DNA of 64,000 bases from an uncultured Actinomycetes bacterium. GTDB lineage: Bacteria; Actinomycetota; UBA4738; HRBIN12. Within the stretch, counting starts at the first letter, position 1. Each line of letters starts with the position of its first letter. The notes beneath the pieces were generated by a model that had not been told where the DNA came from, ran no database searches, and worked only from the letters and a program-made list of their open reading frames with translations. Both the position numbers and the translations under genes were made by a program. Positions 42,906 through 58,198 of this stretch are shown in pieces. The stretch covers positions 128,552 through 192,551 of the forward strand of contig CAVTGO010000013.1 of the NCBI GenBank assembly GCA_963734275.1, read 5' to 3'.

Positions 42906-44135
42906 CTACTTGCCCTTGGCGTGCTTCGCCTGGTCGAGCCCGAGGGCCTTTCCTCGCGCCCACGGAGGCGGGCCGCTCCCCGGCACGTGGTCTCGCTTGT
43001 GGCTCAGGCCCCAGGCCCTGCCGTCGCCGGGCCCGAAGGTGAACCCGTCTCCACCGCCGCCACCGCCGCCACCGCCACCATCCCCGCCGCCGTTGTTGCC
43101 ACCGCCGCCGTTGCCTCCGGTGGTGGTGTCGCCGCCGGACGTGCCGCCTGTGTTCGTGAGGGGCGTACCCCCCAGCACCACGTCGGATCCGCCGCCCGGC
43201 TCGGACTCGTCCTCGAGGACCGGGTACAGACCGCCGAGGATCTGCTGCAGGTCGCCGGAGACGCTCGCCGGGATCCCCGACACCACGGCCTGGAGCCGGG
43301 TCGTGACCTCGGCGTCGAGCCCGCTGATCGAGAAGCCTTGCGCGAGGGCCTGTGCGCGGTCGTCGATGAAGCTCTGCGCCTGCACGGTTGCCAGGACGTA
43401 GTTCCCGCCTTCGATCGCCGCGATCATCGCGTCCATCGACCTGTACGCGGCGTCGAGGGCCGTCTGTTCCGGCTGGGCGATCACGGTGCCGCCGTCGGAC
43501 TGATCGGTCCTGTCGACCGGTCTCGTCGCCGTGTCGGTCCCGATGGTGGTGATCATCGCGATCATCCCCCAGACGACGAGGATCGCCCCGCCGGCGAGCG
43601 TCGTGAGCCGCACCGCCACACCACGATCGCCGTCGCGCCTCGCGCGCAACGTCCCCTTCGTCATCCGCCCCGAGCTCTGGACCATGCCGGCCCTCGACGC
43701 GATGGCGGTGTCCGAGATCGAGTCGTCCGCGCCTGCCCCAGCTCCGACACCCGCCCCGACCAACGCCGGTTCGTGCAGCGAGCCGAGCTCAGAGAACAGC
43801 CGACCGAGGGTCGCCGTGAGGGCGGCGAGGCCGACCCCTTTCTCGAGATAGCCGTCGGCACCGGGGGGGACCCAGCCTTCGCCGGGCGTCGCCGACGTGA
43901 AGACGACGACCTTGGCGTCGGGCGCCTCGCGCCGGATGCGGCCGAGCGTTTCCCCGGGCACGAGCTCATCGTCCACCACGATCGCATCGGGGCGGCCCAG
44001 TCGGATCGCTGGCAGGAGCTCCTCCCCGGTCGTGGCCTCGCCGACGACCTCGTAGCCGTCGTCCTCGAGGAAGCGGCTCACGAGGGCGCGCTTCACGTAG
44101 ATGTTGCCCGCGATCAGGACGCGTATCCGACCGAC
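42906..44135 (-). CDS. receiver (REC)-domain protein with degenerate acidic pocket, one TM helix and a Gly-rich C-terminal tail
   Basis: RVLIAGNIYVKRAL... (GN where canonical REC has DD), ...AIVVDDEL..., then TM GGAILVVWGMIAMITTI and GGGGNNGGGDGGGGGGGGGGDG. Start inferred (GTG). Confidence 0.6.
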   Translation of the reverse strand, partial: VGRIRVLIAGNIYVKRALVSRFLEDDGYEVVGEATTGEELLPAIRLGRPDAIVVDDELVPGETLGRIRREAPDAKVVVFTSATPGEGWVPPGADGYLEKGVGLAALTATLGRLFSELGSLHEPALVGAGVGAGAGADDSISDTAIASRAGMVQSSGRMTKGTLRARRDGDRGVAVRLTTLAGGAILVVWGMIAMITTIGTDTATRPVDRTDQSDGGTVIAQPEQTALDAAYRSMDAMIAAIEGGNYVLATVQAQSFIDDRAQALAQGFSISGLDAEVTTRLQAVVSGIPASVSGDLQQILGGLYPVLEDESEPGGGSDVVLGGTPLTNTGGTSGGDTTTGGNGGGGNNGGGDGGGGGGGGGGDGFTFGPGDGRAWGLSHKRDHVPGSGPPPWARGKALGLDQAKHAKGK

Positions 44136-44326
44136 CAAGATCCTCCCGCCTCCCCTGTGGAACGCCGCCGCTCGTGCTCCCGGCAATCGTAGCGAGAACG
44201 CGCGCGGACCGGGAAGACGATGGTGGCAGGCCTACAGCGGATCGACTACGGCCGAAAGTCCCAAAGGGGGGACGGCCGTTCAGCCGTCTAGGGGGTTCCC
44301 GCGGGAGGCAACCCCGAGGTTCGTGC

Positions 44327-51502: not shown

Positions 51503-52096
51503 TCAGCGGGCGGGGATGGAGGGCCGCCAGAGGGGGCGCGAGCGTTCGTAGACGTCGATCGCGTCCGCGTGGCGGAGGGTGAGACCGATGTCGTCGAGCC
51601 CCTCGAGCAGGCGCCACCGGGTATAGGGGTCGACCCGGAATGACTCGACCATCCCGGGGGCGGTGACGCGCTCCTCCTCAAGGTCGACGGTGATCTGCGT
51701 CGTGGGGTCGTGGACCACCGCGTCCATCAGCGCGCGGACGGACGCGACCGGCAGCTCCACCGGGAGCAGTCCGATCTTGCCGCAGTTGTTGCGGAAGATG
51801 TCGGCGAAGCTCGGGGAGACGATGGCCCGGAAGCCTGCGTCTTCGAGCGCCCACACCGCGTGCTCGCGGCTGGAGCCGCCCCCGAAGTTCGGCCCGGTCA
51901 GCAGGATGCTCGCGCCCCGGTATCCGGGCCGGTCCAGCACGAAGTTCGGGTCCGCGCGCCACGAGTCGAACAGGAACGGGCCGAACCCCGTGCGCTCGAC
52001 CCGCTTCAGGTACTCGGCCGGGATTATCTGGTCGGTGTCGACGTCGGAGCGGTCCAGGGGAACGGCCCGGCCCGTGTGCACGCGGAAGGGCTTCAC
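51503..52096 (-). CDS. leuD: 3-isopropylmalate dehydratase small subunit
   Basis: [26 protein letters not shown]... GTGA overlap with the leuC stop. CCCCGGAGGACCT RBS. Confidence 0.9.
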
Positions 52097-53457
52097 AGGT
52101 CCTCCGGGGTCGCGAAATGGCCGGCGACCGCGGTCGCGGCCGCGACGGCCGGGCTGACGAGGTGCGTCCGTCCGCCCCTGCCCTGGCGCCCTTCGAAGTT
52201 GCGGTTCGACGTCGAGGCCGACCGCTCGCCGGGCGCGAGCTGATCCGGGTTCATCCCGAGGCACATCGAGCAGCCCGCGTCCCGCCACTCGAACCCGGCG
52301 GCGGTGAAGACCTCGTGCAGACCCTCCGCCTCGGCCTCGCGTTTCACGAGCATCGAGCCGGGGACGACCATCGCGCGCAGGCCCTCGCGGATCGTCTTGC
52401 CGCGCAGGATCTCGGCGGCCTCCCGCAGGTCGGACAGCCGGCTGTTGGTGCACGACCCGATGAAGACGGTATCGGGGCGGATGTCGCGGATGGGGGTGCC
52501 GGGCCGCAGGGCCATGTACGTGAGGGCGCGCTCGGCGGTCTCGTCGGCGGGCTCGGGGACGACGTCGTCGATCGTGACCGTCTGCGCGGGGTTCGTTCCC
52601 CACGACACGTATGGCCGGAGCTCGGCGGCGTCGATGCGCACCTCTCGGTCGAACGTCGCGCCGTCGTCGGTGGGGAGCGACCGCCACTCGTCGAGTGCCG
52701 CCTCCCAGTCCGACGGCGCGTGCGGGCGGCCCTCGAGGTACGCGAACGTCGTGTCGTCCGGCGCTACGACCCCGGCGCGAGCGCCGGCCTCGATCGACAT
52801 GTTGCACACCGTCATGCGGCCTTCCATCGACAGCGAACGGATCGCGCTCCCTCGGTACTCGAGGACGTGGCCCACGCCGCCGCCGGTGCCGATACGGGCG
52901 ATGATGCCGAGGATCACGTCCTTGGCCGAGACGCCGGACGGCAGGTCGCCCTCGACGGTGATCGCCATCGTGCCGGGACGCGCCTGCGGGAGGGTCTGCG
53001 TTGCGAGGACATGTTCGACCTCGCTGGTGCCGATGCCGAACGCGAGCGCGCCGAAGGCCCCGTGGGTGCTGGTGTGCGAGTCGCCGCACACGATCACGAG
53101 GCCGGGCTGGGTGAGCCCCATCTGCGGGCCGATCACGTGCACGATCCCTTGCCCGATGTCGCCGGTCGGGAACAGGCGGATGCCGAACTCCGCGGCGTTG
53201 CGGGCGAGCGCCTCCATCTGCTTCACGCTCACGGGGTCCACGGGCCCCGGTCCGGTGGGCACGTTGTGGTCCATCGTCGCGACGGTGAGGTCGGGGCGCC
53301 GGACCGGGCGCCCCTCCATGCGCAGGCCGTCGAAGGCCTGCGGGCTCGTGACCTCGTGGACCAGGTGCAGGTCCACGTAGAGCAGGTCGGGCTCGCCCTC
53401 AGCGCTGTGCACCACGTGGCGGTCCCAGACCTTCTCGGCGAGCGTGCGCGGTTCCAT
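52093..53457 (-). CDS. leuC: 3-isopropylmalate dehydratase large subunit
   Basis: [16 protein letters not shown]..., aconitase-family Cys ligands (CGDSHT, GSCTNSR). 454 aa. Confidence 0.9.
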
Positions 53458-53498
53458 GGGTCCGATGGTGGCAGCCGGTGGACCCTCTGTCCACGGTT

Positions 53499-53535
53499 GT
53501 TCCATCATATGGAACTGTGTTCCACTATATGGAAC
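53499..53535. promoter_or_regulatory. two 17-bp palindromic IclR-type operators: GTTCCATCATATGGAAC (53499..53515) and GTTCCACTATATGGAAC (53519..53535)
   Basis: Perfect GTTCCA-N5-TGGAAC inverted repeats, 20 bp centre to centre, in the 78-bp leuC / IclR divergent intergenic region and overlapping the regulator's candidate start codons. Confidence 0.6.
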
Positions 53536-54423
53536 ATGCCACCGAGCCCACCGAGCCCACCGAGCCCACCGAGCCCACCGAGCCCACCGAGCCCACCGAG
53601 CCCACCGAGCCCACCGAGCCCACCGAGCCGCCTGCGCCCGCCATCCGACCCTTGGCGGCCGCATCGAGCCGCGCCCAGAACGCCGGACCCGACGGCCCCA
53701 TCCGACGTCCCGAACACGGGCGTCGGGACCCTCGACCGGGCGGTCGCCGTCATCGAGGCGGTGGAGCGAGGCGCGAGTTCCTTCACCGCGATCGCCGAGG
53801 CGACCGGCTTGTCCCGGGCGACCGCCCACCGCCTGGTCAAGGCGCTCGTGGAACACGAGCTCCTCGCGACGTACGGAGGGTTCGGCTACCGAATCGGGCC
53901 AAGGCTCCTGCGCCTCGCCGACCGCGCGATGCGCGAGCTCCCCCTCCGTGAGCTGGCCCGCACCGCGCTCGAGCGCCTCGCGCGGGTGACGGGGGAGACC
54001 GCGCAGCTCTACGTCCGTTCGGGCGACGAGCGCGTCTGCATCGACACCGTCGAGTCCGCGAACGAGCTCCGCACGATCGTGCCGATCGGCGCCACCCTGC
54101 CTCTCACCGCCGGCTCCGCCGCCAAGGTGTTCCTCGCCTACGATCCCCGTGCCGACCGGCTGATCCGGCGGGCCGCCGATCCGGCCCGGTTCGGCCGCGA
54201 GGTCGCGCGGGTCAGCGGGCGCGGATGGGCGTCGAGCACCGGCGAGCGGCAGGCCGGGGTCGGCTCGGTGAGCGCCCCGGTCCTCGCGCTGAACGACCTG
54301 CCGATCGCGGTGGTCTCCGTGTCGGGACCGGCGTCGAGGATGGGGCGCATCAGCGCGAAGCGGTACGCGCCGGCGGTGATGGATGCCGCGCGCGAGATCG
54401 AGCGCGCGCTCGGAACGGCTTAG
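53536..54423 (+). CDS. IclR-family transcriptional regulator (LtbR/NdgR-like, divergent from leuCD) with N-terminal (PPS)n low-complexity extension if the ATG at 53536 is used
   Basis: [45 protein letters not shown]-terminal IclR effector domain. Alternative ATG at 53509. Confidence 0.8.
53539..53628 (+). repeat. perfect 9-bp tandem repeat (CCACCGAGC) x10
   Basis: 90 nt of exact repeats immediately after the ATG at 53536. In the regulator frame they encode (PPS)10. Confidence 0.9.
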
Positions 54424-56315
54424 ACGGAACCCGGGATGATGCCGATCGGTCCGTCGGGCAGGTAGACGCGGAACGACGCCCCACCGTCCGGCCGCGCCTC
54501 GACCCACGCCCGTCCGCCGTGCAGCTCCGCGAACCGGGCGACGAGGGAGAGCCCGATCCCGCTGCCTTGTGTCCCCTCGGTGCCGGGACCGCGACGGAAC
54601 GCCTCGAACACGGTCTCCTCGAACCCGGCAGGCACGCCCGGGCCGTCGTCGTCGACGATGATCAAGGCGCCGCCGCCCTCGCGCCGGCAGCGGGCCCAGA
54701 TCCGCGCGTCGGACCCCGTGTGCCGGACGGCGTTCGCGAGCAGGTTCTCGATCATGCGCTCCACCTTCGGGACGTCCACGTTCGCGATGCACCGGCCCGG
54801 CTCCACCTCCACCTTCCGGCCGCGGAGCACGACCGTCCGCTCGACCAGCCCCGACACGAGCTCCACGAGGTCCACCGGGAACCGGCGCGGCTCCGTGATC
54901 CCCGAGTCCAGCCGGTCCAGGTCGAGGAGGTCGGTCAGCAGGCCGTTCATCGCCTTGGTCCGCGCGCCGAGCGTGTGGAGCAGGGCCGTGCGCTCCTCCT
55001 CATCGAGCTGGTCGTCGAGGCGCTCCAGCGTGCTCGCCGCCCCCAGGATCGCCGTGAGCGGCTCCTTCAGGTCGTGCGAGAGGGTGTGGAGCAACGTGTT
55101 CTTCAGCCGGTCCAGGGCCACCAGCCGTTCTTCGGCCCCGCGCCGCTCGGTGATGTCGTACATGAGGCCCTGCAGGCAGATCGGGTTGCCCTCGTCGTCC
55201 AGCACGGCCGTGGCCTCGTCGAGCAGCCACACCCACTCCCCGTCGCGACGCTGCATCCGGTACTCGATGCGGAACGGCACGCCTTCGCGCTGGGACCGCA
55301 CCTCGGCCTCCCGGACCATCTCGAGGTCGTCGGGGTGGGTGAACGAGGCCTGCGGGTGCGGGTGTTCCATCCACTCCGTGGGCGTGAACCCGAGGACGCG
55401 CTCGATCTGGGGGCTGACGTACAGCCAATCGCCGTCGTCCCCGTACTTGGCGAGGTAGACGACGCACGGGAGAGACTCGACGAGGGTGCGGTACTTCGCC
55501 TCGGTCTCCGCGTGGTGCTCTGCCGTCTCCTTCATCTCGGTGACGTCGAGCATCATGCCCTGCCAGAACCGAACCCGGCTCACGGGGTCGGTGATCAGGA
55601 CCGCCTCGTCGCGGAACCACACCACGCGCCCGTCCCGAGCGATCATCCGGTATTCGCTCAAGAAGCGGTCGCCGGTGGTCGCCGACCAGTGGTCCTGCGC
55701 GACGAGCTGGTCGCGATCGTCCGGGTGGGTGGCCCGGACCCGCAGCTCGGGATCGGCCTGCCACTCCCCAGGCGTGTAGCCGAGGATCCGCTCGGTCTGG
55801 GGGCTGATGTACAGGTTGCGGAAGCCGGTGGGACTGGTCGGCTCCTCGACCTGGGTGTACGTGATCGCCGGCATCTGCTCGACGAGCGCGCGGTAGGCCA
55901 TCTCGGTCTCGCGCAGCTCCCGATACCGGCTCCCGGCGGCTGCCCGCCCGTCGACGTCGGAAGCGCGGACGACGACGAGCGGTTCGCCCCCGTTCACGAC
56001 CTCGGCCCACAGGCGGATCACCCGGGTCTCGCCCTCGGGGGTCGACACGGAGGTGTCGAACCCGTCGATCAGGCCGGTCTGCGCGAGACGCCCTCGCGCC
56101 CTGTCCGGCCCGAGCGCGCCCCACAGATCCAGGTCGTACACGTCGGCCCCAAGGACCTCGCCGAGACCTACGCCCATCAGGGCGCAGAATCGGTCGTTGG
56201 CCTCCTGGATCCGGCCGTCATCGAGCCGGGCGACGACCATGCCCACCGCGCTCGCGTGGAAGACGCGGTCGAGCAGGCCCGCCCGATCCTGGGCAGGGGC
56301 GACGTGAGAGTCCAT
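54420..56315 (-). CDS. multi-PAS sensor histidine kinase (orphan)
   Basis: Three PAS-like segments, HisKA H-box [13 protein letters not shown], HATPase_c (...GIGLSLV...). Start at the internal ATG (MDSHVAPAQ); the ORF N-terminus is antisense-type R-rich. Confidence 0.85.
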
Positions 56316-56449
56316 CCCAGGATGCATCGGGTGTCCGCGCGACCGGGTTGACGCATGGGTCGTCATCTGCGTCCTTTGGACGCATCGTTCGGACCATCGG
56401 CCGGTGGGTGACCAGGCCGCGTGGTTCGGGCGCGAGCCACCCGTTCGGG

Positions 56450-58198
56450 CTAACCCAGCTGCCCGGCCAGCACGCGAACGATCTCGTCCTCGATCCCCGA
56501 GGCGGTGGACTTGGACAGACCCGAGCACAGGATCGAGAACTCCACCCAGGCGTCGAGGCGGTCGGCGTAGACCCAGCCCGAGAGGGCGGACACGTCGGTG
56601 AGGGTGCCGGTCTTCGCCCTGATCTTCACGTTGTGGAGCCGGTCGCGAAGGGTCCCCTGGCCGCCGGTGGGCAGGGCCCGCCGCAGGTCGACGCCCCAGG
56701 GCGCGTCTTCTGCGTGCCAGAGCAGCTCCACCATCCCGCGTGCGCTCACTCGGTTCGCGTACGACAGGCCCGAGTTGTCGAACAGTTCGAAGCCCGCGCC
56801 GCGCTCGTTGACCCATTCCTCGACCGTCGCCGCGCCCTTGGCGATCGTGCCCGGGGCGCCGCGAACCTCGGCGCCGAGCCGCTTGCCGAGCACCTCGGCC
56901 GAGAAGTTGTTCGAGGGGACGAGCGTCTTGCGAAGGAGCGTGGCGAGCGGTTGCGAGGAGACCGATGCCACCGGCGTGAGTCCGTCGGGCGACCGACCCG
57001 ACCCCGGCGTTCCCCCGACGCGCACGCCGAGCTCCTCGAGGCGCTCCGTGAGCGCCTCGGCCGCGCGGCGCTCGGGGGCGGGCGAATCGTTGCCATCGAA
57101 CGTGAGCGCCGTCGGCCGGTTCACGTAGTCGCGTGCGACGTTGTTCCATCCCGGGGCGTCCCAGTCCCGTCGGAAGTAGGTGGTGCTCCCGCGGACGTCG
57201 CCCGCGATCCGCACGATCCCCGCGTCCACGATCCGCTGCGCGAGCGCACCCATCGACGCCCGTCCCACACCTGGGTCGCCGCGGCCGAGGATCCACAGGT
57301 CGCCGCGCACGACGCCGTCCCGCACCGTGCGGGCCGAGGCCCGGGTCTGGACCTCGAAGTCGGCTCCGAACGTGTCGAACATCGCCATCGCGAGCAGCAG
57401 CTTCTCGTTCGATGCGGGGGTCCGGGCCGTAAGGTCGGCGCGCCGGTAGAGGTAGACGTCCTCTTCACCGACGGTCACCGAGATCGGGCGACCGCCGATG
57501 GCATCCTCGATCGACTCCATCCACGCGGCCGGCGTGACCTCGAACGCCAGCATCGGCGTCGTGGCCGTCTCGTTCAGCTCGTCCTGCGCGGTCCACCGGA
57601 ACCGGTACCGCACCACCCCGATGTCGTCGAACCCGAGGCAGGGGCTGGCCGTCGCGCTCGAATGAGCGTCGAGCGTCAGCGACTCGAGCACGACCCATCC
57701 GTCCTTCGTGCGCCGCTGGAGCTCGACGAGCTGGCCGGTCTTCGACGGCGTCACGCTGACGAACGCATCGACGCAGGACCCGGCCTCCGCATCGCCGGCG
57801 ACGACCGAACCGTCCACCGAGGCGCGGACGCGCACGAGCGCCAGCTCCGAGGTGGCGGCCGTGCAGCCGCCGCTGGAAGACACGCTCGCCCGGTACCGGC
57901 CGGTGTGCTGCTGGGACTGGTCGAGGGCGACCGTCCCGGTGTCGTCCGTGGTTCCCTGTCCGACGATCGCGGATCCCGAGGAGTCGGCGGGACGCCACTC
58001 GAGGGTGACGGTGCGACCGTCGAGGCACGCCGGGTCGCCCTCGACCGTAACGGTGAGCGTGACGTCGCCTCCGTATGGGGTCGTCTGGTCCGAGGCGACG
58101 ATCGTGACCGTGCTCGTGCCGGCGTGCGCCGGGCCGGCGGCAAGGATCGGCAACAGCACGGCGAAGGTCGCAAGGAGAACGAGGGCGCGGGCTCTCAC
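56450..58198 (-). CDS. dacB: D-alanyl-D-alanine carboxypeptidase/endopeptidase (PBP4, peptidase S13) with N-terminal Ig-like extension
   Basis: Signal peptide VRARALVLLATFAVLLPILAAGPAHA. S13 motifs SNNFSAEVL and KTGTL. Confidence 0.85.
   Translation of the reverse strand: MRARALVLLATFAVLLPILAAGPAHAGTSTVTIVASDQTTPYGGDVTLTVTVEGDPACLDGRTVTLEWRPADSSGSAIVGQGTTDDTGTVALDQSQQHTGRYRASVSSSGGCTAATSELALVRVRASVDGSVVAGDAEAGSCVDAFVSVTPSKTGQLVELQRRTKDGWVVLESLTLDAHSSATASPCLGFDDIGVVRYRFRWTAQDELNETATTPMLAFEVTPAAWMESIEDAIGGRPISVTVGEEDVYLYRRADLTARTPASNEKLLLAMAMFDTFGADFEVQTRASARTVRDGVVRGDLWILGRGDPGVGRASMGALAQRIVDAGIVRIAGDVRGSTTYFRRDWDAPGWNNVARDYVNRPTALTFDGNDSPAPERRAAEALTERLEELGVRVGGTPGSGRSPDGLTPVASVSSQPLATLLRKTLVPSNNFSAEVLGKRLGAEVRGAPGTIAKGAATVEEWVNERGAGFELFDNSGLSYANRVSARGMVELLWHAEDAPWGVDLRRALPTGGQGTLRDRLHNVKIRAKTGTLTDVSALSGWVYADRLDAWVEFSILCSGLSKSTASGIEDEIVRVLAGQLG

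Follow-up and report, generated by a model that had tools for sequence, protein, structure and literature searches.

A perfect in-frame 9-bp tandem repeat encoding (Pro-Pro-Ser)10 at the start of an NdgR/LtbR-like regulator gene beside leuCD, probably a strain-variable length polymorphism

A perfect 9-bp tandem repeat directly follows the likeliest start codon of an IclR-family regulator gene that diverges from leuCD in the DNA of an uncultured actinobacterium. We read this array as a young, in-frame variable-number tandem repeat (VNTR) that is translated from ATG 53536 as part of a disordered N-terminal tail, was made by replication slippage and is near-neutral, and we give this reading a probability of roughly 70%. 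The window, by which we mean the whole stretch of 64,000 nucleotides (64 kb) that was analyzed, has a GC content of 70.6%, with a GC3 of 0.93 in the five genes neighboring the regulator. Throughout the window, Tandem Repeats Finder returned the CCACCGAGC array as its sole strong tandem repeat, with 10.1 copies, 100% matches and 0% indels and a score of 182, while the runner-up scored only 64. When the double unit, the 18-mer CCACCGAGCCCACCGAGC, was searched for with up to two mismatches allowed, nine matches were found in the window, every one of them within the array; the chance expectation for this 18-mer is 0.03 matches (100 dinucleotide shuffles). Head-to-tail copies of such high identity are the mark of a VNTR or minisatellite. 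The array fills codons 2-31 of the gene and its translation, (Pro-Pro-Ser)10 or 30 residues, is in frame with the IclR helix-turn-helix (HTH) and effector domains; the predicted protein starts with M(PPS)10, runs on for 13 more residues and later reaches GVGTLDRAV. A first-pass annotation had described a perfect 9-bp repeat at the 5′ end of the IclR gene, read in frame as (PPS)10 and built of a unit that preserves the reading frame, and all of this was borne out, the unit being three codons long. Its reading of the opposite strand as (GGL)n is likewise correct by translation. The features discussed below are collected in Table 1.

Table 1. Features at and around the repeat array, numbered by their position in the window.
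Feature	Position	Strand	Basis or remark
leuD, small subunit	51503..52096	-	Pfam Aconitase_C, E 2e-26
leuC, 3-isopropylmalate dehydratase large subunit	52093..53457	-	Pfam Aconitase, E 8e-172
Operator 1 (putative), 17-bp palindrome GTTCCATCATATGGAAC	53499..53515	.	GTTCCA-N5-TGGAAC
Operator 2 (putative), 17-bp palindrome GTTCCACTATATGGAAC	53519..53535	.	GTTCCA-N5-TGGAAC; adjoins ATG 53536
IclR-family regulator gene, 295 aa + stop	53536..54423	+	Pfam domains, NdgR/LtbR-like arrangement
Likeliest start codon, ATG	53536..53538	+	abuts right half-site of operator 2 (GGAAC, then ATG)
Perfect tandem array CCACCGAGC, period 9	53539..53629	+	Tandem Repeats Finder score 182
Tail after repeat, residues 32-63, Pro/Arg-rich, predicted disordered	53630..53724	+	pLDDT, composition
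Helix alpha1 of winged HTH, residues 64-77	53725..53766	+	AlphaFold2, pLDDT 87-97
GTG, start of public gene call (220-aa product P0121)	53761..53763	+	residue 76, inside helix alpha1

The 295-aa product, whose stop codon lies at 54421-54423, carries the Pfam domain HTH_IclR (residues 65-111, E 7e-12, 45.3 bits, cut-off 22) followed by IclR_C (residues 131-289, E 6e-27, 94.7 bits, cut-off 24), which is the succession expected of the IclR family. NCBIfam IclR-type models align to it from residue 52-63 onward, and the PDB IclR chains 2o0y, 1mkm and 2xrn from residue 56-67 (68 at most) onward. At about 45 aa beyond the family norm of ∼250 aa, the protein is long for an IclR regulator, and the excess is the tail. 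A protein search yielded 2287 homologues, the best unrelated ones at 65-76% identity, and none of the homologues listed bears the name NdgR (SCO5552), LtbR (Cg1486) or Rv2989. On the other side of a 78-bp intergenic region, leuC is divergent from the regulator gene, and the GTG start of leuD overlaps the leuC stop codon (GTGA). The regulator is thus adjacent to and divergent from leuCD, as expected for the NdgR/LtbR group, and this divergence from leuC is kept in the orthologous loci L002 and L004-L007 and, as far as its contig extends, in L003. The exact pattern GTTCCA-N5-TGGAAC of the two putative operators has two matches in 64 kb, both intergenic, against 0.02 expected, and a two-operator arrangement is also present in the orthologous loci. 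Judged by eye, each palindrome fits 13 of the 15 positions of the published NdgR/LtbR consensus KTYCRSMWYSYGRRM, which is too degenerate to discriminate; with two or fewer mismatches it has 273 matches versus 193 expected and is too permissive.

NdgR of Streptomyces coelicolor, LtbR of Corynebacterium glutamicum and AreB of S. clavuligerus are IclR-type regulators of leucine and branched-chain amino acid biosynthesis encoded beside leuCD. NdgR and its orthologues are encoded next to leuCD, where they recognize a 15-bp imperfect palindrome (PMC4340878), and NdgR and LtbR have been placed in a group defined by GTNCG-N5-6-CGNAC (PMC8222616). Like these proteins, the regulator described here combines an IclR HTH with IclR_C, is encoded divergently from leuCD and shares with it an intergenic region bearing GT(T)CC-N-GGAAC-type palindromes. 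It differs from them in its operator, a 17-bp GTTCCA-N5-TGGAAC palindrome rather than GTCCAC..GGAC, and in its N terminus, since no N-terminal repeat or long Pro-rich tail is described for the characterized members (PMC4340878, PMC8222616). By family, synteny and operator arrangement, the regulator resembles the NdgR/LtbR type, and its putative regulation of the leu genes is what we infer from synteny only.

Whether the array is read as protein depends on the start codon. Ahead of helix alpha1, the frame offers just three canonical starts, TTG 53497, ATG 53509 and ATG 53536. We compared the start with those in six orthologous loci (L002-L007), in which leuC is divergent, two operators are present and the junction is visible. 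L007 shows the identical GGAACATG junction, with the start directly after the second operator. In L003 and L004 the second operator contains the start codon, which follows GGAAC by 1 nt in L005 and by 3 nt in L002; in L006 the regulator starts 30 nt past the second operator. Many annotated orthologue N-termini moreover read M-x-R-N-M, the translation of ...CGGAACATG. ATG 53536 thus corresponds in position to the orthologue starts, which makes the array coding, and translation most likely starts there. The first-pass annotation had raised the possibility of a true start farther downstream, which would leave the repeat in a 5′ UTR, and this proposal did not hold up. No ATG, GTG or TTG occurs in frame between 53539 and GTG 53761, which encodes residue 76 and falls in alpha1, a helix predicted by AlphaFold and conserved in all orthologues, so the 5′-UTR alternative is left unsupported among canonical starts. 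CTG 53632, in frame, is the only non-canonical start candidate after the array. An Rfam scan found no RNA family in the whole window, so an explanation by a leader or riboswitch does not apply, and a consensus scan found no sigma-70-type promoter or terminator in 53300-53800. Since the ATG abuts the operator, the regulator mRNA probably has a very short leader or none.

Codon usage was less informative about the frame. CCA, the Pro codon used in the PPS frame of the unit, accounts for 1.7% of Pro codons in the five neighboring genes, and the first 60 codons of the regulator give a weak coding signal. GC3 leaves the frame inside the array undecided, because ten identical units amount to just three independent codons. 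An out-of-frame reading of the array as TEP would use preferred codons only; we rejected this preference as a sign of another frame since the TEP reading is out of register with the HTH.

The repeat appears to have disturbed the public annotation of the gene. The protein collection holds the 220-aa product P0121, called from GTG 53761, and the 295-aa form is absent from it; P0001, the counterpart in the second strain introduced below (L001), has the same downstream-start gene call. Because GTG 53761 lies inside alpha1 and orthologue starts sit at the second operator, the 220-aa call is, by this comparison, truncated and loses helix alpha1 of the DNA-binding domain, which was cut off because the gene caller avoided the repeat. 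In an alignment of 42 sequences, V63, G64, L66, D67, R68, A69, A75, V76 and E77 of the alpha1 region are invariant or nearly so. The AlphaFold2 model built on this alignment shows residues 1-63 without regular secondary structure, with pLDDT 51-58 for residues 31-60 and above 85 from residue 61 onward. The PPS block itself has pLDDT 82-91, which is consistent with an extended polyproline-type rod, as read from the pLDDT values and not from coordinates. The tail that follows the repeat has no counterpart in solved IclR structures, is 26% Pro and has a GC3 of 0.80, versus 0.93 in the neighboring genes.

Orthologues place the array in a segment that varies in length. Among 107 orthologues with a recognizable alpha1 anchor, the tail ahead of this helix is 41 aa at its longest and 17 aa at the median; in this regulator it is 65 aa, or 35 aa minus the array. 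The orthologue tails are unconserved in sequence and rich in G, T, R, V, A, S and P, and orthologue P0046 has a Pro-rich quasi-repeat of its own, DPTDPPHPPDPPDPT, in its tail. These unconserved tails and the P0046 quasi-repeat indicate that the tail is, across the orthologues compared, a length-tolerant low-complexity segment. The array itself is absent from all ∼119 orthologues (59-76% identity), in agreement with the first-pass remark that such a repeat is unusual for this regulator family. With a median tail of 17 aa and no repeat in the orthologues, the array is best described as a lineage-specific insertion into a length-tolerant segment. Its absence there, together with the identity of its ten units, implies that it is either recent or continually homogenized by slippage.

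The sole close relative of the locus is L001 (ENA assembly ERZ25039588, contig_58226). Relative to the window, L001 has 102 substitutions over 6.7 kb (∼1.5% divergence), mostly synonymous; third codon positions account for 20 of 28 substitutions in leuC (19 of them synonymous), 16 of 23 in the aminotransferase gene and 7 of 11 in leuD. Because the substitutions are mostly third-position and synonymous, L001 represents a genuinely diverged strain rather than a second consensus of the same DNA. Within the regulator gene, only 2 of 885 nt differ, compared with 1.3-2.1% in the flanks; this low divergence could reflect selection or recent recombination at the locus. In L001 the array occupies the same site between identical flanks and measures 67 nt rather than 91 nt, or 7.1-7.4 copies rather than 10.1. 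As assembled, the L001 array is imperfect and out of frame, consisting of four perfect units, a garbled stretch and two or three more units. The alignment has 44 gap openings, among them 39 small indels outside the array that are nearly all single-base insertions, and since these insertions fragment leuC, the L001 consensus is noisy. The net loss of 23 nt in the array is unlike this single-base-insertion error mode. Copy number thus varies at one locus, 10.1 in the window and ∼7.4 in L001, as the first-pass annotation had anticipated for a repeat of this kind, in a comparison of two assemblies of which L001 is error-prone. We conclude that the array predates the split of the two strains, after which its length has probably altered by about three units, as far as two assemblies tell. 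Exact look-ups of P0121 and of the LeuC protein of the window gave no record of further strains, a protein search found just one cluster above 76% identity, and a scan of species-representative genomes contained no relative closer than 72%, so the copy-number comparison is that with L001. The host is an uncultured soil actinobacterium whose nearest genome-level relatives are uncultured Actinomycetota MAGs.

The same unit is found in unrelated DNA. A scan for a 27-mer made of three exact unit copies matched at least 120 unrelated metagenome contigs; the matches listed have 3-7.4 perfect copies, several at contig ends, and none of them lies beside or within a gene for an IclR or LeuC relative. 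In the clearer cases, the unit is translated as (PTE)n linkers of very large proteins that seem to be secreted, and again as (PTE)n where a histidine-kinase-like ORF begins; it gives (PPS)n in extensin-like, eukaryotic-looking proteins and (GGL)n in a ubiquilin-like protein. Its presence in so many unrelated contigs implies that the unit is slippage-prone and recurrent rather than specific to the regulator, and this recurrence argues against a dedicated regulatory function of the repeat sequence itself. As judged from these contigs, slippage in GC-rich DNA produces the unit recurrently, and it codes for linkers of a flexible or extended kind.

Taken together, these observations suggest how the array would behave. 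It would arise and change in length by replication slippage, each step altering the tail by three residues and leaving the operators and the start codon untouched, and (Pro-Pro-Ser)10 would simply lengthen an already long, poorly conserved, disordered tail ahead of helix alpha1. With a 9-bp unit, slippage gains or loses blocks of three residues and keeps the frame intact, giving a length polymorphism and no on/off switch; since the array lies downstream of the start codon and of both operators, operator and promoter spacing are unaffected. The array therefore lacks the frame shift or altered promoter/operator spacing that characterizes an on/off contingency locus, and we ruled out on/off phase variation on these two grounds, a unit that is a multiple of three and a position downstream of the operators. 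A role as a hairpin or cruciform was also rejected; when folding was compared with shuffles, neither DNA strand of the array formed a stable hairpin, the RNA was essentially unstructured (z = +1.6), and both DNA strands and the RNA folded more weakly than the shuffles. Near-neutrality is the most probable status of the array, and is assumed by default.

An adaptive explanation would have the repeat length under selection, setting the amount or activity of an autoregulated leucine-pathway regulator. More units might slow early elongation, with ribosome queuing and dependence on EF-P, or a longer polyproline rod might alter tetramerization, DNA looping between the operators, or turnover, and slippage would by either route yield heritable, reversible heterogeneity in leuCD control. 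We consider this set of proposals, taken jointly, unlikely. To our knowledge, PPS is not among the strongest stalling motifs, and this counts against it. The array does supply ten Pro-Pro motifs and ten CCA codons, which are locally rare, on an unstructured RNA whose leader is very short or absent given the position of the ATG, and its PPS block is modeled confidently as an extended segment. Consecutive prolines near the 5′ end (codons 2-30), a feature of EF-P-dependent stalling sequences, are present at the level of sequence only. According to a review (PMC12856214), proline motifs stall more strongly through ribosome queuing when they lie within the first 100 nt of the transcript, but actinobacterial EF-P is constitutively active. 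All Pro-Pro motifs of the array fall within the first 93 nt. That the array is kept in two diverged strains, and that P0046 has a Pro-rich quasi-repeat in the same tail, would also suit selection on length. Yet all other orthologues function without the array, it lies about 30 residues from alpha1, and its perfect copies and restriction to a single lineage suit a recent neutral expansion equally well. A bolder version holds that the minisatellite is hypermutable and works as a heritable, reversible rheostat that grades the synthesis or activity of a probably leaderless, autoregulated core metabolic regulator, a quantitative form of translation-level phase variation, each 9-bp unit adding a rare CCA codon, a Pro-Pro motif and a longer stretch of polyproline rod; we regard it as distinctly doubtful.

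The remaining alternatives question what the array is rather than what it does. A start after the array, at CTG 53632 or another non-canonical codon, would turn the repeat into an untranslated 5′-UTR element, which we think improbable. CTG 53632 stands in frame right after the array, the repeat and tail give a weak codon-usage signal, and public gene callers skipped the region; against this, nothing resembling a Shine-Dalgarno sequence precedes the CTG, canonical starts are lacking in frame from 53539 to 53761, ATG 53536 occupies the orthologue start position, and the start chosen by the callers removes the conserved alpha1. CTG starts are very rare in bacteria. An error of assembly or consensus, in which the length, perfection or frame of the array comes from long-read calling and the copy-number difference is non-biological, seems to us just as improbable. 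Assemblies are known to go wrong at tandem repeats (PMC6868369), and L001 has its small indels and fragmented leuC. Two independent assemblies of diverged strains nevertheless share the array at the same site, the flanking genes of the window are intact, the ATG and the HTH stay in one frame across the array, and the errors elsewhere in L001 are single-base insertions rather than multi-unit losses. Least credible of all is that the repeat belongs to another gene, either the opposite-strand ORF 53505-53840, read as (GGL)n, or the +2-frame ORF from ATG 53529, read as (TEP)n. Both ORFs are open, the TEP frame uses only preferred codons, and in other contigs, among the matches listed, the unit is most often read as TEP or GGL. 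But long spurious ORFs are expected at 70.6% GC, both ORFs overlap the IclR gene and cross its conserved HTH region in the wrong frame, and no homologue-based support was seen for either.

The reading of the array as a young, translated VNTR can be set beside bacterial repeats described elsewhere. Escherichia coli tolA has an in-frame intragenic repeat whose copy number varies between strains, and there too the frame is kept and only the length of a low-complexity segment changes, as PMC3477136 outlines it; in that same outline, TolA is an envelope protein whose variants experimentally alter stress tolerance, whereas the protein here is a cytoplasmic transcription factor. The sigma factor gene rpoT of Mycobacterium leprae contains a 6-bp in-frame repeat in three or four copies that serves as a strain marker (PMC10183076). 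Like the regulator gene, rpoT is an actinobacterial gene of the transcription machinery with a short in-frame repeat of strain-variable copy number; it differs in having 3-4 copies of a 6-bp unit described as a typing marker, compared with ten copies of a 9-bp unit after the start codon. Slippage in promoter repeats of Mycobacterium tuberculosis generates copy-number variation that long reads are needed to see, and the repeats are proposed to modulate gene expression, according to the part of PMC12817950 that deals with them. Slippage-driven variation in an actinobacterium is thus common to both cases; within what that part states, the M. tuberculosis repeats lie in promoters and alter promoter strength, while the array here is coding and downstream of the operators.

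Repeats that expand in frame within disordered, length-tolerant protein tails are well known, and on present evidence the biology of the array is ordinary and mechanistically unsurprising: by the comparisons made here, it is a strain-variable length polymorphism of a familiar kind. Slippage cases described so far are mostly on/off switches of surface or virulence genes. If repeat length were selected to set the amount or activity of the regulator, slippage would control a housekeeping metabolic regulator by degrees, and if each unit graded its translation, populations would be heterogeneous in their control of branched-chain amino acid biosynthesis. The public 220-aa call for the regulator is a concrete case of a tandem repeat degrading annotation, and the array offers a ready-made strain marker for this uncultured Actinomycetota lineage.

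Public gene calls for both the window genome (P0121) and strain L001 (P0001) place the regulator start at GTG 53761, giving a protein of 220 aa. When called from this GTG, the regulator loses helix α1 of its HTH. This start is likely a mis-annotation caused by the repeat together with the tail, the predicted disordered residues that precede helix α1, in which codon bias is weak. Upstream of the array, two palindromes with AT-rich spacers, CATCATATG and CACTATATG, take up the second half of the 78 bp between leuC and the regulator gene. Judged by sequence, these spacers are the only plausible -10-like candidates for both divergent promoters.

Features at the regulator locus (window coordinates)
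Feature	Position	Strand	Remark
Two 17-bp palindromes, GTTCCATCATATGGAAC and GTTCCACTATATGGAAC	53499-53535		Each unique within the window
Half-site-like GGTTCCATGG, additional to the palindromes	53450-53459		Overlaps the leuC start codon
Publicly called regulator ORF	53761-54423	+	
Sensor kinase ORF, PAS/PAS_3-HisKA-HATPase_c	54420-57296	-	Convergent on the regulator gene

The array DNA can also be read in other ways. ATG 53529, which lies in the operator 2 spacer, starts the +2 frame, which reads MEHA(TEP)10..., remains open until 53951 and does not share the register of the IclR domains. The ORF at 53529-53951 is probably a GC-rich artefact, though its TEP reading, built of preferred codons only (ACC, GAG and CCC), accounts for the GC3 preference for this frame inside the array. 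The template (minus) strand of 53539-53628 reads (GCTCGGTGG)n with GG/GGG runs spaced a few bases apart. As a prediction from this spacing, a two-tetrad G-quadruplex is possible on the minus strand; ordinary hairpin folding there is weak.

When we compared window 53458-54420 with the L001 locus (ENA ERZ25039588), we found a stretch of low divergence, with 2 substitutions in 885 nt of the regulator gene and none in the leuC-regulator intergenic region; divergence in leuC, leuD, the aminotransferase gene and the histidine kinase gene is about 1.3-2.1%. The low divergence at the regulator locus could reflect recent recombination or a sweep, unusually strong constraint, or chance. Against the window, L001 (1-6663) carries 33 single-base insertions, the majority not in homopolymers, which break up leuC and other genes of the contig. 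As a long-read consensus this contig is noisy, and protein calls made on it cannot be relied on. In the window, the stop codons of the regulator gene and the sensor kinase ORF share 4 nt (54420-54423), and the long annotated N-terminal part of the kinase may be an ORF over-extension.

At least 120 unrelated metagenome contigs (L021-L140) from soil, marine, brine and skin sources contain an identical 27-mer, corresponding to three array units. There it codes for PTE, PPS or GGL linkers of unrelated proteins, some eukaryotic- or phage-derived in appearance. The 27-mer is frequently located at contig ends, which suggests that assemblies break at the repeat. The window has one further low-complexity repeat, an imperfect one (CCACCGCCG / CCG, 43051-43119, 70-82% matches), which on the minus strand lies within the Gly-rich C-terminal stretch GGNGGGGNNGGGDGGGGGGGGGGDG of ORF 42906-44186.

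Among orthologues of the regulator, P0046 (71% identity) has the N-terminal tail MDMLTDPTDPPHPPDPPDPTLRR, an independent Pro-rich quasi-repeat in the same position as the array-encoded repeat of the window regulator. At the level of sequence, this suggests that in this family of regulators the tail recurrently acquires low-complexity expansions.
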